64,000 nt of DNA from a bacterium (GCA_037133395.1 JBAXOG010000004.1:19-64018); one strand, 5' to 3'. Positions 6,365-27,700 are shown, counted from the first letter of the stretch. Made by a program: numbers and translations. Notes: a model not told the origin generated them from the sequence alone.

Positions 6365-9300
6365 ATGAGTGATCAACTTAAAAATGTAGTGGATAGTCAG
6401 GAAGATTCAGGAAAAGACTCGGCGAGACATTTCTTCAAGAAGGAAGACTGGATAGCCTCAATATTGTCGTTTCTTTTTTCGACCTATATTTTTATTTGTA
6501 ACATGGCGCCTGAAGTGACGTTACAAGACTCTGGCGAATTGGTGACGGGCGCATTTACTTTTGGCGTTCCGCATCCGCCCGGATATCCGCTGTGGGCCTT
6601 CCTGGGCTATATTTGGAGCCATTTCATTATTCCCTTTGGTAATCCAGCTTGGCGTATCGGCATGATGTCCGTCTTTACTGGCGGTTTGACTGTGGGTGTG
6701 ATGACGCTGATGATGACACGCAGTACGCGCGTGTTGTTGCATACGCTCCCGTGGTCGAAGAAGATCGATGATCGGTTGCTGCACTGGATTGCTTTGTCTG
6801 TTGGCACGAGCACTTCCTTGCTTTTCGGCTTTAATCGGGGTGTTTGGCTCTGGGCGAGTGTCTCGGAGATGCGCGTGTTGAATGCCTTTTCGTTTATTTT
6901 GATCGCCTGTTTCTTCTTTGCTTGGATGGTGCAACCTCGGCGAAAAGGCTTTCTTTATGCCTCCTTGTTGACGTATGGATTGAGCATGACGAACCATCAG
7001 ACCGTGGCGGTGATGGCTTTGGCGCTGGTGGCGGGTACGTTGGCATTGGGGTTGGATAAGTTTTTTCAGCAACGCGATGAACAGCTTGTGGCAAAAGTAA
7101 AAGTGAAGCCGTTTCAGTTGATGATGACGTCCCTGACGACCTTCTGGGATTTAACCGTTGCGGTACTGTTCAGTTTGGCCGCAGTCTTTTCACTCTTTGC
7201 TTGGTTGCGTCTCGATAGCACGATGGTTCCAAAAATTGTCGCACTTGCAGGGGCGGGCACCTTATTGCTGATTGCCGGATTTAAGGCGGGATGGGTCAGT
7301 CCGCGCTATGCCTTTATTTATACGGGCTTGATCTTGTCTGGCTGCGCACTCTATTTGTACATGCCGATTGCCGCATCGACGAATCCGCCCATGAACTGGG
7401 GTTTTGCTTCCACGAAGGAGGGATTCTTACATGCGATTACGCGGGGTCAATATGAGAAACTTCAAATGGCGGATCCGTGTAGTCCTATTTTCGGCACTCA
7501 AATTTTTGTCTTTGTTCGTGGCATGGTTCGTCAGTATTCATTGGTGCTTTGCTTATTTGGCTTGGTCACTTTGTTGGTCTCGACAGGATGGATCATCCAG
7601 CGGCTCTCCCAGGAGGCTAAAAAATATTTTTGGATTTTGCTCGTGTGGTTGGCCGCAATACCGACGTCTATGATCTTGATTTCCGCTTTGCGCACGGTCG
7701 TTTTGAAGCTACCGCTGGAATTCTCCTGGCAATTGATTATCTGGGGTTTCGGACTCTCAACGCTCCTATGCTTGTTGATTGTCCTTTGGCTCTACCTGGA
7801 ATGGCCAGGACGTTCCTGGGCGATTTTTGTTTGGGCGGCATTCCTTGCCTCCAGCCTTGGGTTGATCATGATTATTAATCCCAAACTGGATCGGCAGGAG
7901 CAAGAGATCACGATTAAGTTCTTTGCGCCAGCGCATGGCTTTTATGCCATGCTGATTGGTTATGGCATTGCGATGACTTTCGCGTTTGTTCTCTCGGTAT
8001 GGCGGACCATTCCCAAGGTGCTCGTCTATGTTGTCTGTATCGCACTGTTGGCGTTGCCCTATATTCCGTATGCGATAAACTGGAGTCTCTGTTCGCTCAC
8101 GACGCATGATTTCGGATATCAGTTCGGCTATCGCATGTTTTGCCCAGGGGGTGGATATCCAGATATGGAGAAGGATGCAGTTTTGTACGGCGGGACAGAT
8201 CCGGGGCGTTTTGTGCCAACCTACATGATCTTCTGCGAAAGCCGTGTGAAGCCTCAGCACCGTTTCCAGAGTCCGCACCTGCCGGAATCAAAGGGGCGCG
8301 ATTTCGATCGTTCGGATGTCTACATCATTACGCAGAATGCTTTGGCGGATGGCACCTACATGAACTATATTCGCGATCATTACGATTATAGTCGTCCCAA
8401 TCCGGAAGATTCCAAGACGCTGGAGAAGTTCAGTCCGTGGCAGCGCAGCGTCTTTAGATGGGGCTGGAATGCACTCGATCGCAAAAATGATTTTCCGAAA
8501 AAGCCGATTCGCATTCCGACTCCGGATGATAGTGCGCGGGCTTTCCAGCAGTTTGTGTCAGAAGTGCAGAGCGGGGCGCGTCCGAATCGCGGGGACATTG
8601 TCATTGAAAATGGCCGTGTGCAAGTGACAGGTGCCTTGGCGGTGATGGAGATCAACGGTATTCTGGCCAAGTATATCTTTGACTGGAACAAGACCAATCA
8701 TGCGTTTTATGTTGAAGAGAGTTACGTCATTCAATGGATGTATCCTTATCTGAGTCCAGCAGGCGTCATCATGAAGATCGAGAAGGAGATGCTGCCCACT
8801 CCGCAGCAGAACCCGAAACTGTGGCAGGATATTGTCGCCAAGGATAAGGCGTACTGGGATAAGTTGACGAAGGAATTTACTGCTCGCGAAGAATTTCGTC
8901 GGAATGCCGATGCAAAGAAATCCTTCTCTAAGATGCGCTCTGCGATCGCAGGTGTTTATTTGTTTCGCGGTATGATGGTTGAGGCAGAATATGCGTTTCG
9001 TCAGTCTGTCGAATTGTGTCCAGAAAGTCCCGAAGGTAATTTTCGGTTGGCGGAACTCTGCATGAATCAACGTCGCTATGCGGATGCGCGTCAGCTCATA
9101 GCTGCCTATCTGGCGATTGATGAATATAATGCGAGCGCAAAGGGTTTCTTGAATCAAATTAATGACATTGAAACCTGCGATAAGCGTCGCACAGCACTTC
9201 AAGCGAAATTAGGTACAGGCGCAGATGTTAATGACGTCATGGAGTTACTGTCGATCTATGCGCGGTTGAATCTGCAAAATGAATTGTCTCAGTTGAGTGG

Positions 9301-9658
9301 CATGGTGCTCAATAACGACAAGGCCCCCCCAGAGTGCCTCTTTCAGGTTGGAACGCTGTTGAATAGCGTGCGGCGTCCAGACCTCGCGGCGAATGCCTTC
9401 CGCCGTTATGTGACGCTTGTGCCGCGCGATCCAAAGGGCTGGGTTGAAATGGGCTGGCTGAGCATCACGCAAAATAAGAGTAACGAAGGGTATGACGCCT
9501 GGCGTCGGGCTGTGGAATTAGGTGGCGAAATCACGCGCAGTCAATTGCGCACAGAAGGTCGTTTCCAGCCCTTGTGGCAGCAGCAGAATTTGCCGCCGCC
9601 CTTCCGAGACTTAGTACAGCCGAGTCGTACGCGCGTGGGTGGAAACTTTGGATTTTAA
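6365..9658 (+). CDS. DUF2723/TMEM260-like (GT-C) membrane glycosyltransferase with C-terminal TPR repeats
   Basis: LQDSGELVTGAFTFGVPHPPGYPLW signature, many TM helices, LYLYMPI...PPMNWG, TPR-like C-terminus (AEYAFRQSVELCPES..., AFRRYVTLVPRDPKGW). Confidence 0.8.
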   Translation: MSDQLKNVVDSQEDSGKDSARHFFKKEDWIASILSFLFSTYIFICNMAPEVTLQDSGELVTGAFTFGVPHPPGYPLWAFLGYIWSHFIIPFGNPAWRIGMMSVFTGGLTVGVMTLMMTRSTRVLLHTLPWSKKIDDRLLHWIALSVGTSTSLLFGFNRGVWLWASVSEMRVLNAFSFILIACFFFAWMVQPRRKGFLYASLLTYGLSMTNHQTVAVMALALVAGTLALGLDKFFQQRDEQLVAKVKVKPFQLMMTSLTTFWDLTVAVLFSLAAVFSLFAWLRLDSTMVPKIVALAGAGTLLLIAGFKAGWVSPRYAFIYTGLILSGCALYLYMPIAASTNPPMNWGFASTKEGFLHAITRGQYEKLQMADPCSPIFGTQIFVFVRGMVRQYSLVLCLFGLVTLLVSTGWIIQRLSQEAKKYFWILLVWLAAIPTSMILISALRTVVLKLPLEFSWQLIIWGFGLSTLLCLLIVLWLYLEWPGRSWAIFVWAAFLASSLGLIMIINPKLDRQEQEITIKFFAPAHGFYAMLIGYGIAMTFAFVLSVWRTIPKVLVYVVCIALLALPYIPYAINWSLCSLTTHDFGYQFGYRMFCPGGGYPDMEKDAVLYGGTDPGRFVPTYMIFCESRVKPQHRFQSPHLPESKGRDFDRSDVYIITQNALADGTYMNYIRDHYDYSRPNPEDSKTLEKFSPWQRSVFRWGWNALDRKNDFPKKPIRIPTPDDSARAFQQFVSEVQSGARPNRGDIVIENGRVQVTGALAVMEINGILAKYIFDWNKTNHAFYVEESYVIQWMYPYLSPAGVIMKIEKEMLPTPQQNPKLWQDIVAKDKAYWDKLTKEFTAREEFRRNADAKKSFSKMRSAIAGVYLFRGMMVEAEYAFRQSVELCPESPEGNFRLAELCMNQRRYADARQLIAAYLAIDEYNASAKGFLNQINDIETCDKRRTALQAKLGTGADVNDVMELLSIYARLNLQNELSQLSGMVLNNDKAPPECLFQVGTLLNSVRRPDLAANAFRRYVTLVPRDPKGWVEMGWLSITQNKSNEGYDAWRRAVELGGEITRSQLRTEGRFQPLWQQQNLPPPFRDLVQPSRTRVGGNFGF

Positions 9659-9675
9659 CGACAGGGGGGAAAGGT

Positions 9676-10968
9676 ATGGACGCAGGCACATTTTTGAAGG
9701 AAAACGGACTGGATGTTGAGAAGATTGATCGTGTGGCATTGCTTGCAACCTTTATTGAGGAGATGGATGCTGGGTTGGCTGGCAAGCACTCCAGCTTGAT
9801 GATGATTCCTTCGTTTATCACGATTGATAAACGTGTTAAGACCCATACACCCGTGGTTGTGCTGGATGCAGGTGGAACAAATTTGCGTGCAGCCGTGGTC
9901 ACAATTGATGGAAGTGGCAAGGCTTCTATCGGTTCATTCTTAAAGCGCCCCATGCCTGGAACGCGCGGAGAACTTTCGGCAGAAGCATTTTATGATGCTT
10001 TCGCAGACTTCCTGATGCCGGTGATTGCAACGTCTGAAACTATTGGGTTCTGCTTCTCTTATCCCGCTGAAATCACACCGACGTGTGACGCGAAGCTCAT
10101 TTGCTGGACCAAGCAGATAGAGGTTCCCTCGGTGGTCGGTACGCTGATAGGTTCCGGTTTGCAGGACCAGTTGGCCAAGCGCGGATTCAAGCGCAAGGCT
10201 GTCATTTTGAATGACACGGTTGCGACGCTACTGGCAGGCAAGAGCGCGGGCGTAGCAAAAGCGTATAGCGCGTACGTGGGGTTCATCCTAGGGACAGGGA
10301 CGAATACAGCGTATGTGGAACACAACGCGAACATCACGAAACGAAGCGATTTGAACAGCAGAGAGTCGCAGGTTATCAATGTCGAGTCTGGTGGATTCAG
10401 CCGCGTGACGCAATCGGCCTTTGATCAGGCCATGGATGCGCAGACACATGATTGTGGACATTACGTTTTTGAGAAGATGATCTCTGGCGCGTATCTCGGC
10501 CGTATCGGCTTTGAGGTGCTCAAAGCTGCTGCAAAGAATAACCTCTTCTCTGCTGCGGCTGTTGTAACGATCCAAACATGGGACAAACTTTCCAATATGG
10601 ATCTGGATGCGTTCTGCGGGGATAAGCCACAGGCAAACAATCCCTTCATGGTCGAATCGTTTTCGGTTGCTGATCGTAATACCGTCAAGCAGTTATGTAC
10701 GCCTGTCTATGCGCGTGCTGCTGTGTTAACTGCAATTAATCTGGCTTCTGCAATCCTTAAGACGGGTGAAGGAAAAGATCCGCAGCATCCGGTCTGTGTG
10801 AACGTCGATGGCTCGACCTACTACAAGACGCTCACAGCCGACTTCCAGAATCGTGTGCAGCACGAACTGGCAGCCTTGTTGAAACCCCGTGGTATTGCAT
10901 ACGACCTCATCAAGGTGGATGAATCGCCTGTGATTGGCGCGGCGGTTGCTGGGTTGATGGCCGGCTGA
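9676..10968 (+). CDS. Hexokinase (eukaryote-type hexokinase family)
   Basis: LDAGGTNLRA, IGFCFSYP, WTK, LNDTVATLL, GFILGTGTNTAYVE, INVESG, FEKMISGAYLG, DGS. ATG at 9676 follows a G-rich SD. Confidence 0.9.
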   Translation: MDAGTFLKENGLDVEKIDRVALLATFIEEMDAGLAGKHSSLMMIPSFITIDKRVKTHTPVVVLDAGGTNLRAAVVTIDGSGKASIGSFLKRPMPGTRGELSAEAFYDAFADFLMPVIATSETIGFCFSYPAEITPTCDAKLICWTKQIEVPSVVGTLIGSGLQDQLAKRGFKRKAVILNDTVATLLAGKSAGVAKAYSAYVGFILGTGTNTAYVEHNANITKRSDLNSRESQVINVESGGFSRVTQSAFDQAMDAQTHDCGHYVFEKMISGAYLGRIGFEVLKAAAKNNLFSAAAVVTIQTWDKLSNMDLDAFCGDKPQANNPFMVESFSVADRNTVKQLCTPVYARAAVLTAINLASAILKTGEGKDPQHPVCVNVDGSTYYKTLTADFQNRVQHELAALLKPRGIAYDLIKVDESPVIGAAVAGLMAG

Positions 10969-10978
10969 ATAGAAGTAC

Positions 10979-12394
10979 ATGCAAAAACAAGCACCCCTCT
11001 ATTGTAATGATGCAGATAGCCTCGCGGAGACTGTGCAAGCGGCGATCGAACGCAAAGGGCTGTTGCGGGGGGTGAAGCGTTTGGGTGTGGCTGTGTCCGG
11101 CGGGGCGGATTCGGTGGCATTACTAACCCTGCTGGCGCCAATCTGCAAAAAAAACAAAATTGTACTCTTTGTGCTCCATCTGGACCATGGACTACGCGTA
11201 TCTTCTGTACAGGATGCGAAATGGGTCAAGGCGCTCGCAAAAAAAGCAGGTGTGTGGTGTGTTGCAGAGCGTCAAGAAGTCACGGCTCATCAAACCGAAG
11301 CAATCTCTGTTGAGATGGCCGCGCGGGATGTGCGACAAGCATTCTTTGCAGAGTGTCGGGCACGGTTTAAACTCGATGCGATTGCCACAGGACATCAGGC
11401 GGACGATGTTGCGGAAACCGTATTGCTACGCTTGATGCGTGGAGCAGGGGCCGCAGGTTTGGCACCTCTGAGAGATCGGTCACGCGGCGTTATACGCCCT
11501 TTGCTGCGTGTCTCTGGCGCGGCAATCCGTGCTTGGCTCAAACAGAAAAAGATAAAATGGCGCGAAGACACGACCAACAGGGACGTGTCGATTCCGCGCA
11601 ACAAGATGCGGGTTGAGATCTTGCCTTTTTTAGAAGAGAAGTTTGGCAACGCGCTACGCATGAATCTATGCAGGACCGCAGAGATTTTACAAGAGGAAGA
11701 TGCTCTCTTGGAGAAGCTGGCGCAAGATTATGTCACGAATGAAAGGCCTGACGAGACCTTGGACATAAACAGACTCAAGGTGTGTCCCTTTGCGTTGCAG
11801 AGACGTGTGATGCGGTTGTGGCTCTGGCAAGCAGAGGCTCCTTTGCCAAGTGGCTTTGAGACGGTTGAGCGGTTACTCGCCTTGGAAGAAGGCGACAAGG
11901 AGCAGCTCGCGGAAGATGTGTATGTGATGCTTCGGGCTGGCGCATTACAAATCATCCACACAACGCCTATTCAGAGACCTACAATAAAGGTGAACCTCCG
12001 GGGTCAAACGCACTGGGGGGATGTGGTGATTTCATGCACGTCGGGTAAAGGGATCGAGAATGTTGCGGATAGGACAGGGTTGTATCCTGCGGTGTGTACG
12101 ATCAATCCGGATCTGTTGGATGGAAAACCGCTCATGGTAAGAAGCCGTCTGCCCGGGGATCGCCTTCAGCCTTATGGGATGAAGGGGACAAAAAAGGTGC
12201 AGGATATTTTGGTGGATGCGAAAGTTCCCGAGCACCTTCGCGATGCTGTGCCGCTCTTGGTGTGCGGTGAAGAGGTGGTCTGGATTCCGGGTTATCGCAT
12301 AGCGAGCCGTTTCGCTGTCCCGTCGAAGACTGCCAAGAGTTTACGGATAGAGGTGGTAAGCCCGCCGCCCGGGAACGAGAGCAGTGCTCAGTAA
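10979..12394 (+). CDS. tilS: tRNA(Ile)-lysidine synthetase
   Basis: AVSGGADSVAL, HLDHGLR, ATGHQADDVAET, RPLL, W.ED.TN, RN..R; TilS_C with KKVQDILVDAKVP. Confidence 0.95.
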   Translation: MQKQAPLYCNDADSLAETVQAAIERKGLLRGVKRLGVAVSGGADSVALLTLLAPICKKNKIVLFVLHLDHGLRVSSVQDAKWVKALAKKAGVWCVAERQEVTAHQTEAISVEMAARDVRQAFFAECRARFKLDAIATGHQADDVAETVLLRLMRGAGAAGLAPLRDRSRGVIRPLLRVSGAAIRAWLKQKKIKWREDTTNRDVSIPRNKMRVEILPFLEEKFGNALRMNLCRTAEILQEEDALLEKLAQDYVTNERPDETLDINRLKVCPFALQRRVMRLWLWQAEAPLPSGFETVERLLALEEGDKEQLAEDVYVMLRAGALQIIHTTPIQRPTIKVNLRGQTHWGDVVISCTSGKGIENVADRTGLYPAVCTINPDLLDGKPLMVRSRLPGDRLQPYGMKGTKKVQDILVDAKVPEHLRDAVPLLVCGEEVVWIPGYRIASRFAVPSKTAKSLRIEVVSPPPGNESSAQ

Positions 12395-12395
12395 T

Positions 12396-12479
12396 CAGTC
12401 GGACAGGTCGGACGGGATTGGGGAACGCTCAACGGCCAATTTTGAATAAGGCAATAACGCAATAAGGCAATAAGGCAAT
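12396..12479 (+). repeat. Stacked short tandem repeats (9-mer, 7-mer, 8-mer) filling the tilS-phosphatase junction
   Basis: cagtcggac/aggtcggac (12396-12413); aacgctc/aacggcc/aattttg (12424-12444); aataag-GCAATAAC-GCAATAAG-GCAATAAG-GCAAT (12445-12479) running into the ATG. Confidence 0.75.
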
Positions 12480-13164
12480 GCTTATAAAGGTTTTTACAGA
12501 GGCGATTGATTTTAAGAGGGTTAAACAGTTTTTGGCAGAGGGATGCAAGGTGTCGTTGCTCATCCGCCATTCGGAACGTCCAGCGATTACACCCGGGGAT
12601 ACGACATTTGGTCACTCCTTGGCCTTGACACTTCGCGGTAAAGAGATGGCGCAGAGGGCAGGCCAGTTGCTAGCTGGATCGTATGACGTCCGGTTTCTGT
12701 CGAGTCCGATGGTGCGTTGTCAGATGACGGCTGCCTGTCTTGTGGAAGGCATGGGATGTGAGGGGGCTGAGGTGATTGACGAACCGATTTTGGGGCTGAA
12801 GAATTTTTATTATGATGATGCGGAGAAGCTGCCAGGGGAGATGATGAGATGCGGCTATATTCAATATATGCTCGATTATTTGCGGACAGGATCTGCGCTT
12901 TATTCCCATGATATTGCTGTGGCGACACCTCAGATGGTCGCCTGGCTACAAAGCATGACAACCCGGCAACTCAACGTGCTTGTGTCGCATGATATTTTTG
13001 TTGCAGCTCTGCTTGCGGGTATCCAGGCTCGCACGTATACGGCAGAAAATTGGGTTGGTTTTTTGCACAGCGCAGCAGCGATTTGCACGCCGGAGCACGA
13101 CTGGCTCTTCTATCCTTGTGTACCCTCTTTGGTCATAGAAGACACTATATCTTTTGTTCAATAG
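12478..13164 (+). CDS. Histidine phosphatase family protein
   Basis: LLIRHSER (RHG-like), LT.RG, SSP..RC..TA, VSHD. Confidence 0.8.
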   Translation: MLIKVFTEAIDFKRVKQFLAEGCKVSLLIRHSERPAITPGDTTFGHSLALTLRGKEMAQRAGQLLAGSYDVRFLSSPMVRCQMTAACLVEGMGCEGAEVIDEPILGLKNFYYDDAEKLPGEMMRCGYIQYMLDYLRTGSALYSHDIAVATPQMVAWLQSMTTRQLNVLVSHDIFVAALLAGIQARTYTAENWVGFLHSAAAICTPEHDWLFYPCVPSLVIEDTISFVQ

Positions 13165-14191
13165 GGACGGGCTTACTCGTATCGTCTGCTTGAGGGATAT
13201 CTGTGAAGAAGAAAGCCGTCATGGCAAGTATTAAAACCAAGCAGACAATCGTGGCCGATTTTACGATGCTTTGTTTCGGGAGATCGACATGCGTTTCTCG
13301 CTCTTCAAGACTATGCATCCATGCCTTGGCCGTGGGCTTCTCGTTTTTCTTACTGAGAAACACAAGCAGATTTGCAAAGTGAAACATCAAGAGTAAGCCT
13401 ATGACGAACGTAACATATTGCGAATAATGAGCGTAAAACGCAACAGCCCACTGACGATCCAGCTTTAGGGCGATGAAACACACGAGGAGTGAGCGAATCA
13501 GATTAGCAACAAAGGTAATCGGAATCGCGTAACAGAATACCGCCCAACGTTGCAGGCGTGTCTTGACCGTAAAATGGGCAAACGTGGTTGCGATGACTAA
13601 CATGGAAAAGAGTGAATGTATGCCGCTCAAGGGCGCATCGGGTTTTAAGTTGAAGCCTTTAAGACCCAGCAGGTCACGCAAGGTGGTAAACCCGGATTGC
13701 TCCACAGATGTCCCGAAACGTATGATCATCTCCGGGAGGGGTTCGGATAGCGTCTTGAGACAATCAAGATAGAAATGAACCGGAACGGCGAAGGCTAAAA
13801 ATCCCATCGGGAACCATAATAATTTAGCGGCTTCTTTTCCCCAAAGAGAATATGAAACGGAAACGACAACGCCGGCAAGCGAGAGAAGCTGAAAGGGAGG
13901 TTTGTCGCTCGAAGCAGATGCGACAAGAGCGCCCAAGAAAAGACAGGTTAATCCGAAGCCGATCCAGGAGGGTAAAGAAGCGGCTTTCGAAATCTCGTTT
14001 CTCCGGCTACAGAGAGCATAACAACTAATCAAGGGAACGAACCACTCGAAGGATAGAAGTTGTGTGGCCGATAATTTTGTGAAGTCAATGGCTATTGCGC
14101 TGAACAAGATCGCTTTAAAATGAAGGCAGCCGAGGACGATTAATACGCCTAACGTCACCGCGCGTAACCACGCTAAAATTTTTATATCCAT
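13145..14191 (-). CDS. Exosortase-family membrane protein lacking the catalytic Cys
   Basis: Colinear with the neighbouring exosortase (FP.GFL.F.VP, LFSML, ANLIRS), but PDAPLSGIHS replaces VADPCSGIRS and FYAHYS replaces FYHDYS. Confidence 0.75.
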   Translation of the reverse strand: MDIKILAWLRAVTLGVLIVLGCLHFKAILFSAIAIDFTKLSATQLLSFEWFVPLISCYALCSRRNEISKAASLPSWIGFGLTCLFLGALVASASSDKPPFQLLSLAGVVVSVSYSLWGKEAAKLLWFPMGFLAFAVPVHFYLDCLKTLSEPLPEMIIRFGTSVEQSGFTTLRDLLGLKGFNLKPDAPLSGIHSLFSMLVIATTFAHFTVKTRLQRWAVFCYAIPITFVANLIRSLLVCFIALKLDRQWAVAFYAHYSQYVTFVIGLLLMFHFANLLVFLSKKNEKPTAKAWMHSLEERETHVDLPKQSIVKSATIVCLVLILAMTAFFFTDIPQADDTSKPVPIEQKI

Positions 14192-14203
14192 TTTCAATCC
14201 TGC

Positions 14204-15889
14204 CTATTTGAGAAGTATTTTCGGATACAACTCATCTAAAAAGGCTTCAAACTGCTTTCTCGCTTCTGGGTCATCCAATGGAGCCGATACATTAATGGCA
14301 ACCATCGCCCAACGATTAATGCGATTCAGGATGGAGCGATCCCAGATGTCGAGTGATATGCGCTCAGCATGCGAGGCACACTCATGGTTGGGGCTCACGA
14401 ACCAATAGACGAGCGAAAAAAGATAATCGGAGGACGAGCGTTGAGCTTGAATAATCCGCGCTTCCCGAGGGTGTCCCGATTTGATATCTAATTTCTCTTT
14501 TTTTGCGCTGAGCATCACGAATCCTTGTGCAGGGAGGCAGAGCTCCGCCCGATGGATACTTCCACGGCTTCGTCCTGCAATGACAACGCTGACCGAATAA
14601 ATGAGCCCATCCGCAGAGCGATAGACCCTTTTAAGGATTTCTGTATCTTTAGGAAGGTCTTGTAACTCACCCATCGAGACTTTCTCCATTTTTCCTCCAC
14701 AGGTCGGACACTTAAATCCGTCGCCTTGTTGGCATTTTTTTTCGATCAGAATTTGTTCTTCCGAGTGATCATTGCATTGTTCGTTGTGACAGAACCAGGG
14801 CTGATCGCCATTAAAAGAACCGACTTGTTTGGGAAGGCTCGCAACAATAAAACGCGCTGAATCGTAGACAGGGGCACTCACCATCCGATTGCTGATAAAA
14901 ACAAAGAGCACACAAAAAGAGATAAAGCCGACGGGAACGAAATCTTTCCATGTCAGTGGCCGCACACATTCATTTTCTTTCGAGGCATGGACAAAAAGCG
15001 AACGAAGACGCGGGAAAAAAGTGATAGCCCAAGTATCTATTTTCACCATCCATCGACCTGCTTCGAACATCAATAAAACGCCGATGACAAAAATGACGAA
15101 ACCAGAATAATCATGATAGAAGCCCGTTGCAATTTTTTGTCCAAAAAAACGTGCGACCAAGCAAATGGAAAAAATCCGAAACATGTTTCCAATCATTGCG
15201 ATGGGCAATGAACAGGCAAAGAGCATCCATTTCTGAAGGCGTGTTTTTAACGTAAAATGAGCGTAGGCCGCTGTCAGTGCCATCATGGCAAAGAGCGAAC
15301 GAATTCCGCTGCAGGGATCGGCCACATCCACATTGAACTCGCCTCCAGGTACGTGAGAAAAAAGTGCCGTCCCCGAACGTTCAATGGCCATGCCGAATCC
15401 ATTGAGAATACAGGTGGCCATGCCAGAAGAAAACATACGCAAGTGCATCGTGAAGAAATCAAGAAAGGAAGAAATGGGGACTGTAAACAATAGGAATCCA
15501 GCCGGGAATAACATGAGCTTAGCCGTAGGCCGTCCCCAAAGGGCATAAGGGATAGACCAGATGAGTCCAATCAGGGACAGTTGCTCAATACGTGATTGCT
15601 GTCCGCGTGCTCCAAACCAGGCTGCGACCAGAAACAGGCAGGACCAAAAGAACCCTTGCCAAGAAGGCCTCCCGATGGCCATGGCTTTGGAAAAATCAAC
15701 CCGCATTTTCCAGATCGCAAAAAGGCTGACAAACGGGATGACCCATCCATGCGACATATCCTCCAAGGGTTCGTTAAACATCACCAGGGTGTAACCTATC
15801 ATTCCTGAATAATTATAATAGGCAAAGAAAACCATAAGGGCGACCATTATAAATCGCGTCCAATCAAGTATTTTTTTCTGCATGATCAT
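14204..15889 (-). CDS. Exosortase (EpsH) fused to an EpsI-like periplasmic domain
   Basis: DMSHGWVIP, VADPCSGIRS (Cys), GNMFRI (Arg), FYHDYSG (His); EpsI motif SIHRAELCLPAQGF and YWF. Start approximate (15883/15889/15910). Confidence 0.85.
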   Translation of the reverse strand: MIMQKKILDWTRFIMVALMVFFAYYNYSGMIGYTLVMFNEPLEDMSHGWVIPFVSLFAIWKMRVDFSKAMAIGRPSWQGFFWSCLFLVAAWFGARGQQSRIEQLSLIGLIWSIPYALWGRPTAKLMLFPAGFLLFTVPISSFLDFFTMHLRMFSSGMATCILNGFGMAIERSGTALFSHVPGGEFNVDVADPCSGIRSLFAMMALTAAYAHFTLKTRLQKWMLFACSLPIAMIGNMFRIFSICLVARFFGQKIATGFYHDYSGFVIFVIGVLLMFEAGRWMVKIDTWAITFFPRLRSLFVHASKENECVRPLTWKDFVPVGFISFCVLFVFISNRMVSAPVYDSARFIVASLPKQVGSFNGDQPWFCHNEQCNDHSEEQILIEKKCQQGDGFKCPTCGGKMEKVSMGELQDLPKDTEILKRVYRSADGLIYSVSVVIAGRSRGSIHRAELCLPAQGFVMLSAKKEKLDIKSGHPREARIIQAQRSSSDYLFSLVYWFVSPNHECASHAERISLDIWDRSILNRINRWAMVAINVSAPLDDPEARKQFEAFLDELYPKILLK

Positions 15890-15925
15890 TTCGACTCTTT
15901 TCCTTGTCACAGGGCTTTATGTAAT

Positions 15926-17063
<1,138 letters not shown>

Positions 17064-17071
<8 letters not shown>

Positions 17072-18590
17072 GATGTGCACTCCTGATGCGATAAAGAACA
17101 TCCTCTTTCTCAAACGTAAAATGGCCTGTAAGCAAGACGTTTGACGTATACCCGGCAACAGGCGACACAATAAAAACACGGGCTCTTGTTTTTATCAGTC
17201 GGACAAGATCCTCATCTGTCTCACCTGTAAAAAAAGTAATAACGCGAATATGAGGCGTTAGAAGTCCAGCGGCTTGTGCTGCCATGATGGGTCCCGCCGC
17301 AGTATTGTCCGCAATGAGGACATCGCCTTGTTTTAGGATAGCACAGACATGTTGAATAAAGCGAGCGGCTGATTGCTCGTTGTGTTTCCAGGGAAACAGC
17401 CAATAGCTACTTTCCTCTCTAAAGGGGAGTTCGCGCATCCGCTTAACCCCGCCTTGTCGGGTTTGTAAAAAATGATGGAGGATCAAGGGCGTTGCAAGCG
17501 AGAAGAACAAGATCACGGCTCCTAACGTGATCAGATGCTTACGTTGAAGCGTCAGGCTGTCTAATCCCATACCAACCCAAATAACGAGGAGCGCAAGGGA
17601 GGGTAATATAAACGTGGCTTGATCGGGTACAAAATAACGAATCCAGAACACAACATGGATCGCGGTTAATCCGAGAAGCACAATTTTGAAGCAAGTATAT
17701 TTGCTGTGCGTCCGTCCTGCAAAGCCAGCAAATACCCAGGCAGGATTGAATAGGCTGATGCCGGCCAATGCTAAATTCATCTTTGCCAACGGCCAATTAA
17801 TCGCTCGGGTTCCGACGACAACATCTTCAAACTCGCGACCAAACAAGAGGCTCTTAACCGTTGTAACGAACGATTGTGTGGTGCCCCATTCGATCACAAA
17901 AAGTCCGAGGAGTAAACAGGCTCCGAGTAGCCAGGTGCTAGCACAAATAAGAAGAACACGGGCCATGTACAGGAAATGTTTTCGGGCATGCAGATAGACA
18001 AAAAGAATGGCATAGATCGGCAGATTTAAAAAAGCGAAATTGTGGAGGGACGCATGCAGGCCGTTCAGCAGGGCGAGAAGGATCCAGCCCTGAACCCTGA
18101 CCCCTGAATCTTGCTCTGGTGTTGCGCAGAGGTGCGCAACGCAGAGCAACTCCGCCATAAGAAAGGCAAGTGACCAGGTATAGACTTCTGCAATCGTGGA
18201 CATCCACCACGCCATGTGAGTGAGCCCAAGAGTCAAGACCGCGAGGATGATGGTGGATGTTTTAAGTTGCAACTGCAACAGGATGCGCGTCAAAAAGAAT
18301 AATGCGAGCGACATACCCAGACCGCTAAAAAGATTCAGTGCATAAAAACGACAAGAGGCCGGAAAGAAAAAAGAAAATAATTCTGCTCCAGCAATGTAGC
18401 ACGGATGCGAGCGTGCAATTCCGGAGATCCAAAAATAATCATGAGCGAGCACACGATATTGAAATTCTCCGCTGTCTTGCCAGCTTACACCCCGTTGCGC
18501 TGTTGCTGCATAAAGAAGAAAGAAACAAACAAAGATCACACCCGAGAGTATCCAGTTTTTATTCGATGTTATGTCTCTGATGCATATCAT
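17064..18590 (-). CDS. DUF2723/TMEM260-like (GT-C) membrane glycosyltransferase
   Basis: N-terminal TM then WQDSGEFQ...GIARSHP.Y; later W..S..AEVY; polytopic hydrophobic profile; overlaps the aminotransferase start. Confidence 0.7.
18088..18110. repeat. In-frame heptamer tandem repeat inside the DUF2723 gene
   Basis: CCCTGAA-CCCTGAC-CCCTGAA (3x7 = 21 bp), encoding part of DSGVRVQG on the minus strand. Confidence 0.55.
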
Positions 18591-18598
18591 AAGAGAAG

Positions 18599-19219
18599 TT
18601 ATTTCAATCGGGCACGGGTTGTGTGGTCAAGAATGTGAGTCAAGGCGGTTGTGCCAGCACCGAGCGTGGACCACGCTCCCATTTTTATAAGTGGAATCGT
18701 TGAGGCGTTGGTTCCGAGGAGTGCCCCTTCTCCGATGTGGCATCCGCCAGAAATGCGGGCTCCTGGACAAACCTGCACAAAGTCGGCCAGAGTGACATCA
18801 TGACCAACACAGGCTTGATTATTCACGATGACATGGCTGCCGATGAGAGCCCCAGAAGAGACAATGCTCCCGATGCCAATGAAAGAGCCTTTGCCAATGG
18901 TCGTGTCAGGCGCGATGATCGCCGTGGGATCAATAATAGAGTGAGGAAGGATCCCAACAGCGCAGGCGCGTGCGACAACGGATTGCCGTGCACGATTATT
19001 TCCAATGGCACAGATGAAGCGCGCACCGGGCAGTTGAGCAGCAGCATTCTCCAGTGTTCCGAGCAGTGGAAAGCCTGCAAAAGTTCCGCTCTGTTTATCC
19101 GAAGCATCGTCGCAAAAACCGATCAGCCCCAGATCGCACCCTGCATGGTTCATACGGTCGATAATCCAGGCGATTTCTTTGCCGAACCCACTTGCGCCAA
19201 TGATGATTATTTTTTTCAT
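18599..19219 (-). CDS. Sugar N-/O-acetyltransferase, PglD/NeuD family
   Basis: IIIGASGFGKE, GFCDD, AIGNN..R, VGHD, hexapeptide repeats. Confidence 0.88.
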   Translation of the reverse strand: MKKIIIIGASGFGKEIAWIIDRMNHAGCDLGLIGFCDDASDKQSGTFAGFPLLGTLENAAAQLPGARFICAIGNNRARQSVVARACAVGILPHSIIDPTAIIAPDTTIGKGSFIGIGSIVSSGALIGSHVIVNNQACVGHDVTLADFVQVCPGARISGGCHIGEGALLGTNASTIPLIKMGAWSTLGAGTTALTHILDHTTRARLK

Positions 19220-19788
19220 TGCACTCCCTTGAATTCATCCATGGTGGCTTCACCATCAGCATGGATGCCTTGGCGTGTTAAGACGCGCCAAGCGGTGAGC
19301 CCAATTATTTTTAAATCAAGTCCGAAAGTCCAGTGGTCAACGTACCAAACATCATAAGCAAATTTTTGTTCCCACGTGAGCGTGTTGCGCCCATTGATTT
19401 GCGCCCATCCTGTTAGGCCGGGACGCACATCGTGGCGGCGCAACTGCTCAGGCGTGTAACGCGATAGGTAACGTACGAGCAGGGGACGTGGACCCACCAG
19501 CGACATCTCCCCCTTTAGAACATTGAAAAGCTCAGGCAGTTCATCGAGGCTGGTGGCGCGCAGGAAACGTCCCATGCGTGTCAGGCGTTCGGCATCTGGG
19601 GCATCGCCCAAACGCATGGTGCGAAACTTGAATAAGCGAAAATTTTTTCCTTTCAAGCCAGGCCGCTCTTGCGTGAAGAACACCGGGGCGCCCATGCTGA
19701 TCAACACAACGCAAGCGACCAGTGCCAGCAACGGCAACCAGAGCACTGCTGTGAGAAGCGTGAGTGTCATGTCAAATAAGCGTTTCAT
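19216..19788 (-). CDS. Monotopic undecaprenyl-phosphate sugar phosphotransferase, PglC/EpsL-like
   Basis: KRLFD, FFTQERPG, KFRTM, SLDELPEL.NVLKGEMSLVGPRP, RPGLTGWAQINGRN. Confidence 0.92.
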   Translation of the reverse strand: MKRLFDMTLTLLTAVLWLPLLALVACVVLISMGAPVFFTQERPGLKGKNFRLFKFRTMRLGDAPDAERLTRMGRFLRATSLDELPELFNVLKGEMSLVGPRPLLVRYLSRYTPEQLRRHDVRPGLTGWAQINGRNTLTWEQKFAYDVWYVDHWTFGLDLKIIGLTAWRVLTRQGIHADGEATMDEFKGVQ

Positions 19789-20168
19789 GGCACGGGGGTA
19801 ATAGCGACGGCCTCGATTTCAATGCGAGCGTTTTTGGGTAAGCGCGACACTTCAACAGTTGAACGCGCAGGTTTGTGTCCGGCGAACATCTCCTCATACA
19901 CTTTGTTCATGAAGGGAAATTCTCCCATGTCTGTGAGAAAGACGGTTGTCTTCACGACCTGGCTCAAGCTTGAACCTGCTGCCGCAAGAACGGCACGGAG
20001 ATTTAGGAGCACTTGCATGGTCTGTTCTGCGGGGCCTACGACTTCGATGATGCCGGTGACTGGATTGATCGGGAGTTGTCCTGAGCAAAAGAGTAAGCCG
20101 TTGACTTCAATGGCTTGTGCGTAAGGACCGATAGCTGCGGGTGCATTTGGGGTATTAATTATGTTCAT
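19785..20168 (-). CDS. ridA: RidA/YjgF reactive intermediate deaminase
   Basis: APAAIGPYAQA, SGQLP, VVKTTVFL, PARS, LPK...IEIEA. Confidence 0.9.
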   Translation of the reverse strand: MNIINTPNAPAAIGPYAQAIEVNGLLFCSGQLPINPVTGIIEVVGPAEQTMQVLLNLRAVLAAAGSSLSQVVKTTVFLTDMGEFPFMNKVYEEMFAGHKPARSTVEVSRLPKNARIEIEAVAITPVP

Positions 20169-20169
20169 A

Positions 20170-21057
20170 CTATTTTTTCGTACGTGTAGCAGATTCGAGG
20201 GTGTTATACAGAAGCATGGTAATAGTCATGGGGCCGACGCCCCCGGGAACAGGTGTAATCAGCGAGGCGACCTGCGTTGCGGAATCGAAGTCGACATCGC
20301 CGACGAGACGGAAGCCGTTTTTCTTAGTGGCATCTGGAATGCGGTTGACGCCCACATCAATGACAACGGCGCCAGGCTTAATCATGTCACCTGTGACCGT
20401 ATTCGGACGGCCTGCGGCTACAACCAAGATATCCGCTTGCCGGGTAAAGACGGACAAATCTTTCGTGCCCGTATGGCAGACGGTCACCGTGGCGTTGCCG
20501 CCTTTGGCCTTGCGCATCAGCAGGTGCGCGACGGGCTTGCCGACAATGTTGCTACGACCGATCACGACCGCATGCTTACCTGAGGTCTCGATACCTGCGC
20601 TGATCAGCATTTGTATGATGCCGTTCGGTGTGCAGGGCAGGAAGCAGGTCTCGCCAATCATCATGCGGCCTACATTGATGGGCGTGAAGCCATCGACATC
20701 CTTTTCAGGGACGATGGCGTTAATGACTGCGGCTTCATTAATATGTTTCGGCAGTGGAAGCTGTACGAGAATGCCATGAATGCGCGGATCACTATTCATC
20801 TTTCGGACAACGGCCAGAGCCTCTTCTTGTGTGGTTGTGGCGGGCATACGTACATCCTCCGAATGCATGCCCGCTTCCTCGCAGGCCTTTTCCTTGGCGG
20901 TCACGTAGGAGGTGGATGCGGGATCGAGTCCAATGAGGATCACGCCAAGACCGGGCGTGATGCCATGCTGGGTCTTGAGCTCCGCGACTTGCTTTGCGAT
21001 ATCTGCGCGCATCGTTGCTGCGAGTTGTTTACCGTCGAGTATCATTGCTGAGTTCAT
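20170..21057 (-). CDS. folD: Bifunctional methylenetetrahydrofolate dehydrogenase/cyclohydrolase
   Basis: YV..K, GILVQLPLP, KDVDG, PCTP, GRSNIVGKP, IDVG.NR, TPVPGGVGPMT. Confidence 0.97.
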   Translation of the reverse strand: MNSAMILDGKQLAATMRADIAKQVAELKTQHGITPGLGVILIGLDPASTSYVTAKEKACEEAGMHSEDVRMPATTTQEEALAVVRKMNSDPRIHGILVQLPLPKHINEAAVINAIVPEKDVDGFTPINVGRMMIGETCFLPCTPNGIIQMLISAGIETSGKHAVVIGRSNIVGKPVAHLLMRKAKGGNATVTVCHTGTKDLSVFTRQADILVVAAGRPNTVTGDMIKPGAVVIDVGVNRIPDATKKNGFRLVGDVDFDSATQVASLITPVPGGVGPMTITMLLYNTLESATRTKK

Positions 21058-24707: not shown

Positions 24708-24753
24708 CCTAACGTTTTTCGTTTGATTTGAATCAGTCTAATTGGAGAAAAGA

Positions 24754-27700
24754 ATGAATACAACAACACGGTTCACAACTATGATTAAGAAAATGGTTCT
24801 CCCTCTCGTTGCGTGCGGCTTGATGTGCGCGACGGGCGCTTATGCGATTGATCCTCCTGGGGATATTATCGGGTTCTACTCGACATCAGCGAATTCGGCT
24901 TTTAAGACACCTGGAACAACCGTGGAATTTACGATTCGTCTCTATGGGGCGATAGTTGTTTCAAACTTCTATGGTGCCGCCTGGGCCGCGCCTCAGATAC
25001 GTATGGAGGTCGGTTCGGACGGTGAATCTTCAACGGCTTATGCCACGTTAGTCGATAAAACATGGACAGTTCCCAGTAATCCGTTCGATGTGTTTAATAG
25101 GACGGATTTGACGTTCGCTTATGTGATTCGTCCTGGGGATATGGCGAATCCGCTTAAGATCTGGGGTACGCCAGCATCGGGGTTCCAGATTGTCGATATG
25201 CAGAATTTAATTTACAGAAGATATGCAGATGGCACGTCAAGTAACGTTACCTGGAAAGTGAATCCCGCACTCTATGATCAGCCCCTTGACAACCCCCTTG
25301 ATTCTAATAAAGGTATTCCCTATTTAGACCTTGACATGTCGGCCCAAAAAATTAGTCTTCAGACGCTGAGTTTTGATGCTGCAAATAGTCCTAGCCCGAT
25401 TGTGGCACGTCAACCGGCAACGCTTTGGCGCGTCAAGTCCGGAGCAACGAACGCACCAGTGGGTGTGGAAGTCATCGTCTGGACGCCTCACACCAATGTC
25501 CTTCAGATCGTAGGTGCTACTCAGATAGGTTCTGTTCCTGGAAACGCGTTGTCGGTAATAATCCCAGCAGGGTCTGATTATGTGAACTTCCCGATCAAGG
25601 GTCTTGACACCAATGCTAGCCCCACAATTGCAACGGTTTATGCCCAGCGTCCATCGGATTATGCGAAAAACATAACGGGTATTACGAACTTCATTAGCCG
25701 CTCGGTGACAATTCTGCCGGGCTCGCCCTCGATAAGTCTGGAGTTTTCGAATGGACTGTCCAGTCAGACGCTGGCAGAGACACATGATGAGACGGAGCAA
25801 TTGGAGTATTTCCAGATCGTTCTTTCCGAGTCTCATACGAACGATGTTTATGTTGATTTGAGTATAACACAACAGCCAAGCACAGCGACCAATATCGTCA
25901 TGACCCAGCCAAGTGGGTATTTCGTTCCTGCGGGTCTGGAAAGATCAGAGAAGTATACCTTCAGCGTCAGGGATGGTACACGTGAAAGTGCCCGTTTGAT
26001 TACGCCAGTGCGTATCACACCCTTAGCTACAAACAAGTATACGGTCGTTTCGGCGGGAACGTTGTTTATTACGAATGTCGCCCCGACAATCATCAGTGAT
26101 TTCCCACCCACTGGGTATGAATATACGCCTGTGACTTTTCAATGGACGAGTCTCTTTGACGTGACGGCGGACTTGGCCAAGGGAATCGTCTTTACGTGGG
26201 ACTTTGGTGACGGTGCGACGCGTATTACGGAGACGAACTTGACCTCCGCGACATCTGGTCAGATCACGAAGACCTATAAAAATATTGGTTCTACAGCAAG
26301 AACGTACCTCGTCACGCTGACAATCACAGATGCTGATGGAGGTTCTTACACATTACCGACTCACACCATTACCATTAATCCGCCAATCAGACCGCCCAAC
26401 GTCTCGGTGGTTGTAAATCGCGCAGACTTGACTTATCAAGAGGGGGATACGAATGCTACCTATCGAGTTGTCCTCTCAGAGCCTGCTCAACAGGATACGT
26501 GGGTGCAGTTGAAATGTCAGTATCCGGATGCAACATCCGCAGATGCTTGCCTCTCCTTGTTAACAACCAACATTCTGATCCGCCAAAACTTCACTAATTC
26601 TTCAGCATACGCGATGACGATTCTTGATGGCACGTCAGTGACCGCATCCGGTATCGATATTATGCCGACGATTACTAATGCCATAGCCAAAGCTCAGTAT
26701 CCAAGTGCTTATCCTGGCATTGTCATGATCCAAAATGCGGTTCCTACGATTGACACCATACCTTCCAGTCAGTCGAGCACGACAGTACCTATTACGACTT
26801 TTAACGCTATCGAGATCAATAAGCCCTTTACCTTCCACTATAGAGCGGCTGATGTCAGCGCAGACCTGAATGGAGCGTCACCGATACGTGTTATGTTCGA
26901 GTTTCCCGATTTCACTACGACTAATGTTGTTGGTGCAATCGGCACGGTGACAAAGACCTTTACGTTATCTGATTTGGGAATTCAGTACGTGCGCATGACC
27001 GCCACGGATAAGGATGGTGGCGTGAGCAGTATTGTCACCTTCCCAATCAATGTTGTTACTCCCTTGCCGCCGCCTTCAGTCACGGTTGTTTCGTATCCAG
27101 TCTTTATTGCTGAAAACGATACCACCGCCAAACAACTCACCGTTATGTTGTCTCAAACACCAGCCTCTGCTGGCATTTCGCAACCTGTGACGGTCTATTT
27201 GGATATGACGCCGACCACGAACACGGTCAATGGTGCGGTTTCAATCCCTACCAGTGTTACGTTCTACACTTCTGAAACGACCAAGCAGGTTCTTTTCACG
27301 GTCAAAGATGGTACACAGCTGAGTGCCAGTAGCGGATTCACGATCACGCCTCGCATTGCGACCAATACCGCCGGTTCTACGTTGTATACTGAGTTTCAGC
27401 CCGGCCAGGTCTTGGTGCAAAATGTGGCACCTGTTTTCCAACAGCCAGTTGACGGGAGCACCAACACGGTTGCAACGGTCGGACAGCTCCGTACCTTTAA
27501 CTGGTCGGTCAAAGATGTAACGGCTGATTTAACGGGCATGACGCTCGACTGGGACTGGGGTGATGGTACCACGACCAGAACGATAGGGGGTTCCGGCACC
27601 ACCAATCACACCTACCTCTCCGCATCTTCCCAGATCGCAGTCACCGTGATAGCGACCGATAAGGACGGAGATGTTTCACGTATCAGTTTCTATGTCACGG

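Follow-up and report, generated by a model that had tools for sequence, protein, structure and literature searches.

Exosortases of the EpsH type and their PEP-CTERM substrates associate with exopolysaccharide loci (Haft et al., 2006, as summarised in PMC7468200), and that summary describes the compound to which exosortases attach their substrates as unidentified. For the type IX sortase PorU, a sortase-like enzyme with a cleaved C-terminal sorting signal is associated with amino-sugar genes, and sugar attachment, through the linking sugar of A-lipopolysaccharide (A-LPS), is described there as shown (Veith et al., 2020, PMC7468200). The pgl systems of Campylobacter and Neisseria serve N-linked and O-linked protein glycosylation, respectively, and the human protein TMEM260 is characterised in a preprint as a protein O-mannosyltransferase (10.64898/2026.03.17.711096). 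Here we describe a cluster of six genes at positions 13145-19788 of a 64,000-nucleotide stretch of bacterial DNA (GCA_037133395.1, JBAXOG010000004.1:19-64018; hereafter the window), in which PglC-, PglD- and PglE-like genes surround a gene for a glycosyltransferase of the GT-C fold and run into a pair of exosortase genes.

The locus belongs to a known class, that of an exosortase with EpsI beside envelope-glycan genes. It differs from this class by an exosortase outside the named subtypes, a dead but conserved paralogue, priming of the N,N'-diacetylbacillosamine (diNAcBac) type, and GT-C enzymes replacing Wzx/Wzy/Wzc. We read it as a stripped-down Kiritimatiellae locus that would join envelope-glycan synthesis to exosortase sorting, with the GT-C protein using the PglC product on the periplasmic side, and we give this reading an even chance of being correct. 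Among the papers listed by our literature searches, none joins an exosortase with bacillosamine, PglC, diNAcBac or Kiritimatiellota. The six minus-strand open reading frames (ORFs) and the genes next to them are as follows.

19216..19788, minus strand: PglC-like small monotopic phosphoglycosyltransferase, 190 amino acids (aa) (PF02397 Bac_transf, 1.1e-61; solved match 8g1n)
18599..19219, minus strand: PglD-like sugar N-acetyltransferase, 206 aa (PglD_N and Hexapep; TIGR03570, 173.3 against a cut-off of 160.8)
17064..18590, minus strand: predicted GT-C fold glycosyltransferase P0001, 508 aa (PF11028, 18.7 bits against a cut-off of 24.2; family profile and fold model)
15926..17071, minus strand: PglE-like sugar 4-aminotransferase, 381 aa from the ATG at 17071 (frame 17179/17071-15926; PF01041 DegT, 6.3e-82)
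14204..15910, minus strand: exosortase-EpsI fusion, 568 aa (PF09721 Exosortase_EpsH, 4.8e-46; PF11984 DUF3485/EpsI, 3.3e-11)
13145..14197, minus strand: pseudo-exosortase without EpsI, 350 aa (PF09721 Exosortase_EpsH, 1.5e-23)
19785..21057, minus strand: RidA and FolD genes, upstream of PglC and co-oriented (Pfam and NCBIfam matches)

The PglC-like protein has N,N'-diacetylbacillosaminyl-1-phosphate transferase (8g1n) as its best solved match (E 1.1e-55, residues 1-188); its predicted role is the transfer of a sugar-1-phosphate of the diNAcBac type to undecaprenyl phosphate. The PglD-like protein contains the PF17836 and PF00132 domains and falls into TIGR03570, the NeuD/PglB/VioB family; among solved structures it matches VioB (7txp, 4.9e-28), the Neisseria pilin glycosylation protein (4m98, 5.5e-27) and UDP-N-acetylbacillosamine N-acetyltransferase, the PglD of Campylobacter jejuni (3bss, 1.1e-13). 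The best solved matches of the PglE-like aminotransferase are 1o61 (1.7e-90) and 4ztc (9.1e-90), both of which we take to be C. jejuni PglE, and its top NCBIfam match is the LegC family, at 316.5 bits under the cut-off of 420. The three Pgl-like identities proposed in an earlier reading of the window (the sequence-only reading) are thus borne out by domain and solved-structure matches, and the pglF gene that it had expected elsewhere is present on another contig: a UDP-GlcNAc 4,6-dehydratase of the PglF type, 621 aa, is encoded at C42:2925-4790 and is 64% identical to the PglF lying within the cluster of a related locus (L004; PF02719, 5.6e-113). On paper, the route to UDP-2,4-diacetamido-2,4,6-trideoxyhexose and its undecaprenyl diphosphate (Und-PP) derivative would be complete. 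The sugar is probably diNAcBac or an epimer; since small phosphoglycosyltransferases of the PglC family also take KdgNAc, FucNAc4N, QuiNAc and FucNAc, as reported in PMC11626204, its exact identity is not readable from sequence.

The cluster resembles the pgl systems of Campylobacter and Neisseria in that PglC, PglE and PglD are the best or near-best solved matches, PglF is in the genome and a GT-C protein stands amid the sugar genes. In contrast to those systems, the embedded GT-C protein is TMEM260-like and not STT3, and no STT3/PglB was found; the cluster is without GT-B enzymes of the PglA/J/H type and without a PglK flippase, and its PglF is unlinked.

The 508-aa protein has a single Pfam match, PF11028 (TMEM260-like, formerly DUF2723), at 18.7 bits under the gathering score of 24.2, or 21.6 bits in a six-frame search. 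Its homologues were sought by a word-indexed search in which the 8000 candidates sharing most words were scored; 307 had E <= 0.001, and among the 120 matches listed 46 carry PF11028. A profile of 99 sequences of the family matches the solved human TMEM260 (9rql) with an E value of 4.6e-8 over residues 16-346. In this alignment the WQDSGE motif of the family falls on GGDSGE of TMEM260 and D39 falls on D52. D39 and H62 are invariant across the 99 sequences, and a correspondence of H62 with H67 of TMEM260 requires a shift of 2 residues from the HMMER alignment. D52 and H67 are given as essential donor-site residues of TMEM260 in the preprint (10.64898/2026.03.17.711096). The AlphaFold2 model of the protein is of high confidence (pLDDT 94.6, pTM 0.93). 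Foldseek returned 31 Protein Data Bank matches at E <= 0.001, those listed being GT-C enzymes; the top matches are ArnT, STT3, PglB, ALG9/12, AftA, DPY19 and Pmt4, with ArnT (5f15, E 1.8e-6) as the first. The TMEM260 structures 9rql-9rqn are not among these fold matches. After the membrane core the model has a beta-alpha-beta domain (residues 385-508), in which D423 is nearly invariant and D428 nearly invariant to invariant. The alignment to TMEM260 ends at residue 346, before this C-terminal alpha/beta domain, which in the model recalls the Rossmann-like "palm" of TMEM260 and may be equivalent to it, with a counterpart of the TMEM260 base D441. Pfam finds no tetratricopeptide repeat (TPR) in the protein, and no longer relatives, such as TPR-fused forms, were found at E <= 1e-10, which the search itself rates as weak evidence.

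At the level of profile and predicted fold, the 508-aa protein is therefore assigned as a GT-C glycosyltransferase of the TMEM260-like (DUF2723) clan. The label "DUF2723 GT-C" of the sequence-only reading holds for clan and fold and does not hold at the Pfam cut-off. The protein is like TMEM260 in its GT-C core (profile E 4.6e-8), in the aspartate equivalent to D52 with a nearby invariant histidine, and in a soluble alpha/beta domain after the membrane core. It is unlike TMEM260 in that the single sequence stays below the Pfam cut-off, TPR fingers are missing, and it is shorter (508 aa, where the solved chain has 729). The donor is probably not dolichyl phosphate mannose (Dol-P-Man). Our full-text search for DUF2723 yielded the human enzyme only, and the literature found assigns no function to bacterial TMEM260/DUF2723 members.

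The DUF2723 protein of the window that does exceed the threshold is encoded at 6365-9658 on the plus strand. It has 1097 aa, with PF11028 at 84.5 bits in its N-terminal part and TPR in its C-terminal part, and so has the full TMEM260-like architecture; the gene is syntenic in the related loci L001-L003. The genome has two further large DUF2723 and TPR paralogues (C37 and C72), whose open frames span 1099 and 1139 aa. Judged by architecture, these three large proteins would be better candidates for a protein O-glycosyltransferase than the 508-aa GT-C protein.

The exosortase-EpsI fusion (15910-14204) exceeds the cut-offs of TIGR02602 (138.2 against 105.55) and TIGR04178 (72 against 23). None of the named subtypes (XrtA, B, C, D, T, V, W and Z) reaches its cut-off, the top ones being XrtD (151.9/400), XrtA (143/208) and XrtW (136.1/425). 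The EpsI domain passes PF11984 (43.7 against 26.1) and is under the cut-off of TIGR02914 (29.2 against 42.8). The positions of catalytic type, C200, R245 and H266, show no variation across 15 orthologues. The following gene encodes a protein about 35% identical to its neighbour, in which the catalytic motif DPCSGIRS has become APLSGIHS. Its cysteine is replaced in all five orthologues (L, A, S, S, S) and its arginine and histidine positions are also eroded in some, and the designation of this protein as a pseudo-exosortase in the sequence-only reading is upheld. Its orthologues were found in the closest relatives only, namely L001, L002, L003, L028 and genomes of the same genus. These two exosortase genes are the only ones found in the genome.

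An insert in the EpsI part (protein residues ~370-405) contains C374, H375, Q378 and C379, followed by C401, P402 and C404 (CHxxQC...CPxC), all invariant in 15 orthologues. By its residue pattern it looks like a zinc-ribbon or disulfide motif of a periplasmic domain.

The locus shares with EpsH exosortase systems an exosortase with EpsI, a PEP-CTERM substrate and neighbouring genes for sugar transferases and sugar-modifying enzymes. It differs from them in that no named Xrt subtype applies, the fused EpsI has the invariant Cys-rich insert and a Cys-less paralogue follows. DiNAcBac-type and GT-C genes also stand here instead of Wzx/Wzy/Wzc, and the substrates are few (0-9 per related genome).

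A search for PEP-CTERM targets found a sole protein in the source genome, encoded at C48:22734-23207 (PF07589 27.1 bits in the six-frame search and 23.6 in the protein scan, cut-off 20.7). It has 157 aa with a signal peptide and the tail VPEPTAMALLAMGVSALLLRRKRAV. A regular-expression screen of the genome gave no further PEP-CTERM protein, and a screen for a C-terminal hydrophobic helix with a basic tail gave 31 candidates, one of which has the PEP motif. A sub-threshold match on C87 (E 0.37) was rejected, as it is a 792-aa protein with a hydrophobic C-terminal region without PEP motif. The substrate has orthologues in two of five genomes of the same genus. PEP-CTERM matches occur in 25 of the 31 genomes profiled, at 0-9 per genome, and their counts do not track the GT-C gene (0-9 in genomes without it, 0-6 in genomes with it).

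Two giant secreted proteins are encoded in the window on the plus strand. The one at 24742-35355 (3537 aa; PKD, LamG, TSP3) ends in ...FFYVEIIENIQ, and the one at 35464-40434 (1656 aa; M4 peptidase, MAM, He_PIG) ends in ...RFLRLEVSTNLTTNIY; neither has a PEP-CTERM tail. Their short strand-like tails resemble the endings of three small secreted proteins encoded upstream of the C48 PEP-CTERM gene, and such tails of giant and small secreted proteins may be another C-terminal signal.

Two samples of relatives were compared with the cluster: 80 loci encoding relatives of the GT-C protein (L numbers), onto each of which the window proteins were mapped, and whole-genome profiles of 31 genomes (G numbers), the source genome counted in. 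The samples partly overlap and the relatives are not independent. Loci with a GT-C identity of ~38% or more were taken as the close group, and the other 45 belong to Planctomycetota, Phycisphaerae and others. An exosortase was scored as near when within 7 kb, and its absence was called only if both flanks extended at least 7 kb. In Kiritimatiellae, the full order is PglC, extra GT-C-like genes, PglD, GT-C, PglE, PglF, Xrt/EpsI, WecA-like GT4, UPF0047 and DUF218. The extra genes after PglC are one to three GT-C-like genes (GT87, PMT_2-like, PMT-like) and a membrane protein of no named family, and the WecA-like GT4 carries a CoA_binding_3 domain. Within the close group, PglE or PglF lies at most 2.5 kb downstream of GT-C in 17 of the 25 loci with enough flank, PglD at most 1.5 kb upstream in 10 of 24, and an exosortase within 7 kb in 16 loci, with 4 lacking it and 15 undecidable.

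Outside the close group, an exosortase is adjacent to GT-C in one of the 45 loci (L044), absent in 12 and undecidable in 32. It lies upstream of GT-C there and in L029. The neighbours of GT-C outside the close group are one or two PglF-like genes, a UbiA-family prenyltransferase, a DegT aminotransferase, sometimes a GT4, and, as leads only, a probable TPR protein and a GH123-like protein. Since these loci are mostly without exosortase, the association of GT-C with 4-keto/4-amino sugar genes appears to be old and broad, and the exosortase a Kiritimatiellae addition.

In loci L035-L074 (Planctomycetota/Phycisphaerae; for example L043 and L046, ~8000-16000), GT-C has a PglF-like gene and a divergent prenyltransferase of the UbiA family at its sides and is followed by genes for a protein of cluster c7 (probably a TPR protein), PglF and a DegT aminotransferase; where the flanks allow a decision, no exosortase was found within 7 kb. 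From gene content, this looks like a split TMEM260 architecture of GT-C plus TPR beside a UbiA enzyme. The c7 protein follows GT-C in 13 Planctomycete loci, and its nearest named ESM-Atlas clusters are TPR proteins, which is a lead only.

Among the 31 genomes, an exosortase is found in 29 and GT-C in 16; 13 have an exosortase without GT-C. A PglC-like match (E <= 1e-20) occurs in 30, near-full-length at 53% identity or more in 25. In the 16 genomes with GT-C, the gene lies on the same contig within 7 kb of an exosortase in 12 and on a different contig in 4. G008, a well-assembled genome of 20 contigs, splits the locus, with PglF-Xrt-GT4-UPF0047-DUF218 and GT1-AAA-PglC-PglD-GT-C-PglE on separate contigs. 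Genomes without GT-C keep pgl genes by the exosortase (L085, L086), as PglC-PglD-PglE-PglF-Xrt in G025 and as PglC...PglE-PglF-Xrt in G022.

The sequence-only reading had proposed that the GT-C protein, as an unrecognised oligosaccharyltransferase or lipid-sugar transferase, couples bacillosamine glycosylation to exosortase sorting. One part of this proposal stands: the protein is assigned as GT-C and, because it lies inside sugar genes in many relatives, is the best candidate user of the lipid-linked bacillosamine-type sugar. The expected conservation of the neighbourhood likewise holds for the PglC-PglD-GT-C-PglE module, which recurs in Kiritimatiellae. The coupling to sorting is not supported, given GT-C in 16 against exosortase in 29 of the 31 genomes, pgl genes kept by the exosortase without GT-C, the split in G008, and 12 of 13 decidable loci outside the close group without exosortase. 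The bolder claim of one glycosylation-and-sorting system is weakened because the association of GT-C with the exosortase is facultative. That GT-C is optional and that PEP-CTERM counts do not follow it speaks against its being an obligatory coupling device, and favours an association of the exosortase with a glycan primed by bacillosamine that is looser and yet recurrent.

In L081 (G023:C3), the exosortase-EpsI region at 7445-11230 on the minus strand overlaps a 1261-aa frame for an ABC exporter of the MsbA/PglK type. A fusion of the two was considered and rejected, because Pfam sees only the ABC exporter in that frame, and we read them as adjacent or overlapping frames. Either the exosortase is directly followed by a candidate flippase for lipid-linked sugars, or the record contains a frameshift.

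No STT3, Wzy_C, Wzx or Wzc domain was detected by Pfam and NCBIfam in the six cluster proteins, in agreement with the sequence-only reading, which had recognised no PglB, PglL, Wzx, Wzy or Wzc in the cluster. In the genome as a whole (92.3% complete), no PF02516 match for STT3/PglB was found. Three Wzy_C proteins are encoded elsewhere in it (C84, C19 and C91), two of them within polysaccharide loci; ligase, polymerase and oligosaccharyltransferase roles are indistinguishable for these proteins. The C84 protein belongs to a pseudaminic-acid/Wzx/Wzy locus, whose last glycosyltransferase has PglJ as its top NCBIfam match at 141 bits against a cut-off of 500, and the C19 protein to a dTDP/GDP-sugar locus. 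The sequence-only reading had allowed that an oligosaccharyltransferase or Wzy pathway elsewhere might account for the Und-PP-sugar, and this applies in part: the three Wzy_C proteins and at least one Wzx/Wzy locus could take it, and no STT3 was found. The C84 locus (G000:C84:1-19900, L098) also encodes a PseB-like dehydratase, PseG, NeuB, several GT4 enzymes and a FemAB-like Acetyltransf_6 protein beside its Wzx-like and Wzy_C proteins, and no initiating phosphoglycosyltransferase was found among its scanned ORFs. A WecA-like GT4 is present on C82 (52% identity). For the extra GT-C enzymes, a GT-B enzyme and DUF218 of the relatives, tblastn (threshold 1e-5, or 1e-6 in one run) gave no homologue in the genome; of this set, only UPF0047 matched. 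By these searches the module of the source genome appears minimal, with GT-C as the sole glycosyltransferase remaining beside PglC, and because no other remains there, GT-C likely uses the PglC product directly.

The ORFs and their junctions agree with the six co-oriented, overlapping or closely spaced genes described in the sequence-only reading. The overlaps are of 4 nucleotides at RidA/PglC and at PglC/PglD, and of 8 at GT-C/PglE, with the PglE ATG at 17071; the gaps are of 8 nucleotides between PglD and GT-C, 15 between PglE and the exosortase, and 6 between the exosortase and the pseudo-exosortase. Such close spacing and overlapping stops and starts suggest that the six genes are co-transcribed. 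RidA and FolD are housekeeping genes, and co-transcription of RidA with PglC is made probable by the overlap at the PglC start. The order MutS-FolD-RidA-PglC is shared with L001, L003 and L028. Promoter and terminator pattern scans near the cluster gave about the shuffled expectation.

The window lies on contig C4 of a genome of 5.04 Mb in 290 contigs, from a freshwater Kiritimatiellae bacterium. Most of the named homologues found for its proteins come from metagenome-assembled genomes of Kiritimatiellae/Kiritimatiellia, and its DNA was found again in freshwater and lake metagenomes; in one metatranscriptome, contigs span only parts of RidA and FolD. Elsewhere in the window, a gene for SelA (selenocysteine synthase) at 1264-2730 on the plus strand suggests selenocysteine use by the organism. 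A protein with Hexokinase_1 and Hexokinase_2 domains, of the hexokinase family that is uncommon among bacteria, is encoded at 9574-10968 on the plus strand, with synteny kept in L001-L003.

In the mechanism that we propose, PglF (from C42), PglE and PglD would convert UDP-N-acetylglucosamine (UDP-GlcNAc) to UDP-2,4-diacetamido-2,4,6-trideoxyhexose (diNAcBac or an epimer), and PglC would transfer the sugar to undecaprenyl phosphate. The lipid-linked sugar would be flipped by some flippase, and the GT-C protein would then act at the periplasmic face, taking the PglC product either as donor to some acceptor or as an acceptor that it extends. The exosortase-EpsI protein would cleave few PEP-CTERM proteins (one was found in this genome), and the Cys-less paralogue would be a non-catalytic relative. 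The glycan and the exosortase would serve one surface structure, with GT-C as an accessory and not as an obligatory coupling factor. In this scheme the identities of the domains, the GT-C fold, the residue conservation and the synteny are shown by the analysis, and the sugar, its donor and acceptor, the topology and a connection of the glycan to the sorted protein are inferred.

Several points weigh against this proposal. Polyprenyl-monophosphate sugars serve TMEM260 and most GT-C relatives, and PglC makes a diphosphate-linked sugar; because clan donors are usually monophosphate-linked, direct use of the PglC product would depart from what is normal for the family. A flippase for the lipid-linked sugar was not identified, and the pathway may have other outlets in the source genome, given the three Wzy_C proteins, the Wzx/Wzy pseudaminic-acid locus and the PglJ-like glycosyltransferase. 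GT-C is absent from 15 of the 31 genomes, and 10 of these 15 still have a PglC orthologue at 53% identity or more, so that something else can consume the PglC product. In G003, G004 and G005, of the same genus and 86-92% complete, the exosortase pair is present and no PEP-CTERM match or substrate orthologue was detected. Since PglF and GT4 have moved away, the gene order in this genus is also partly a product of rearrangement.

Another view is that the two halves of the cluster have no functional link. In this genus the exosortase pair would then have reached pglE by rearrangement, PglCDE would prime a Wzx/Wzy polysaccharide or lipopolysaccharide produced elsewhere, and GT-C would modify lipopolysaccharide or a different envelope glycan in the manner of ArnT. 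Genes for PglF and GT4, which stand beside the exosortase elsewhere in Kiritimatiellae, are dispersed here, the modules of G008 are on separate contigs, Wzx/Wzy loci exist on C84 and C19, and ArnT 5f15 is the top structural match (E 1.8e-6). We nevertheless consider this view rather unlikely, as pgl genes and the exosortase are found together repeatedly, at GT-C identities between 73% and ~40% and in differing gene orders (L029, L044), and the tight spacing with overlapping stops and starts suggests co-transcription. In the strictest form of the sequence-only reading, GT-C would be a new oligosaccharyltransferase that places the bacillosamine-type sugar on proteins, above all on exosortase substrates, with glycosylation and sorting as one pathway. 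GT-C is embedded among pgl genes, and PglB occupies such a position in Campylobacter. The minimal module is without another glycosyltransferase, STT3 was not found in the genome, and the c7 protein after GT-C in the 13 Planctomycete loci would, as a lead only, mimic GT-C plus TPR; TMEM260, to which GT-C is closest in sequence among solved structures, is a protein O-glycosyltransferase according to the preprint (10.64898/2026.03.17.711096). This role is quite improbable in our judgement, however: GT-C is without TPR and a search for long, fused forms of it gave none (weak evidence), its presence does not follow the PEP-CTERM counts (0-9 without it, 0-6 with it), 13 of the 31 genomes have an exosortase without GT-C and GT-C occurs in Planctomycetota without a nearby exosortase, and the DUF2723 and TPR proteins (three in the genome, in frames of 1097-1139 aa) would be better candidates for O-glycosylation.

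By analogy with PorU, the pgl/GT-C module might instead make a periplasmic amino-sugar glycolipid or glycan to which the exosortase joins the cleaved PEP-CTERM protein. Across Kiritimatiellae the exosortase has PglD, PglE, PglF, PglC and the WecA-like GT4 as neighbours, also where GT-C is absent, the source genome has one exosortase system with one detected substrate, and the exosortase acceptor is an unidentified compound as described by Veith et al. (2020, PMC7468200). We give little credence to this reading, because acetylation of the 4-amino group by PglD would leave diNAcBac without a free amine, Pfam and NCBIfam detect no FemAB-like or deacetylase gene in the cluster, and adjacency of exosortase and polysaccharide genes is general and usually taken as a looser association. 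The enzyme family, the signal and the sugar pathway all differ from those of the PorU/A-LPS system as described there, and the sugar attachment shown for that system is conjecture here (Veith et al., 2020, PMC7468200). The preferred reading remains that of a stripped-down locus in which envelope-glycan synthesis and exosortase sorting would be joined with GT-C as an accessory.

A defined amino-sugar pathway, a small GT-C protein, an exosortase and a single detected PEP-CTERM protein make this cluster a compact experimental system. It is doubtful, in our estimate, that either of two stronger statements applies, namely that a product made or transferred by the pgl/GT-C module is what the exosortase attaches to the PEP-CTERM protein, or that GT-C represents a third class of bacterial oligosaccharyltransferase acting from Und-PP-diNAcBac. 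If one of them is true, the system would consist of one sugar, one GT-C protein, one active exosortase and one substrate, and would be small enough to be rebuilt in Escherichia coli and to allow the acceptor of an exosortase to be identified.

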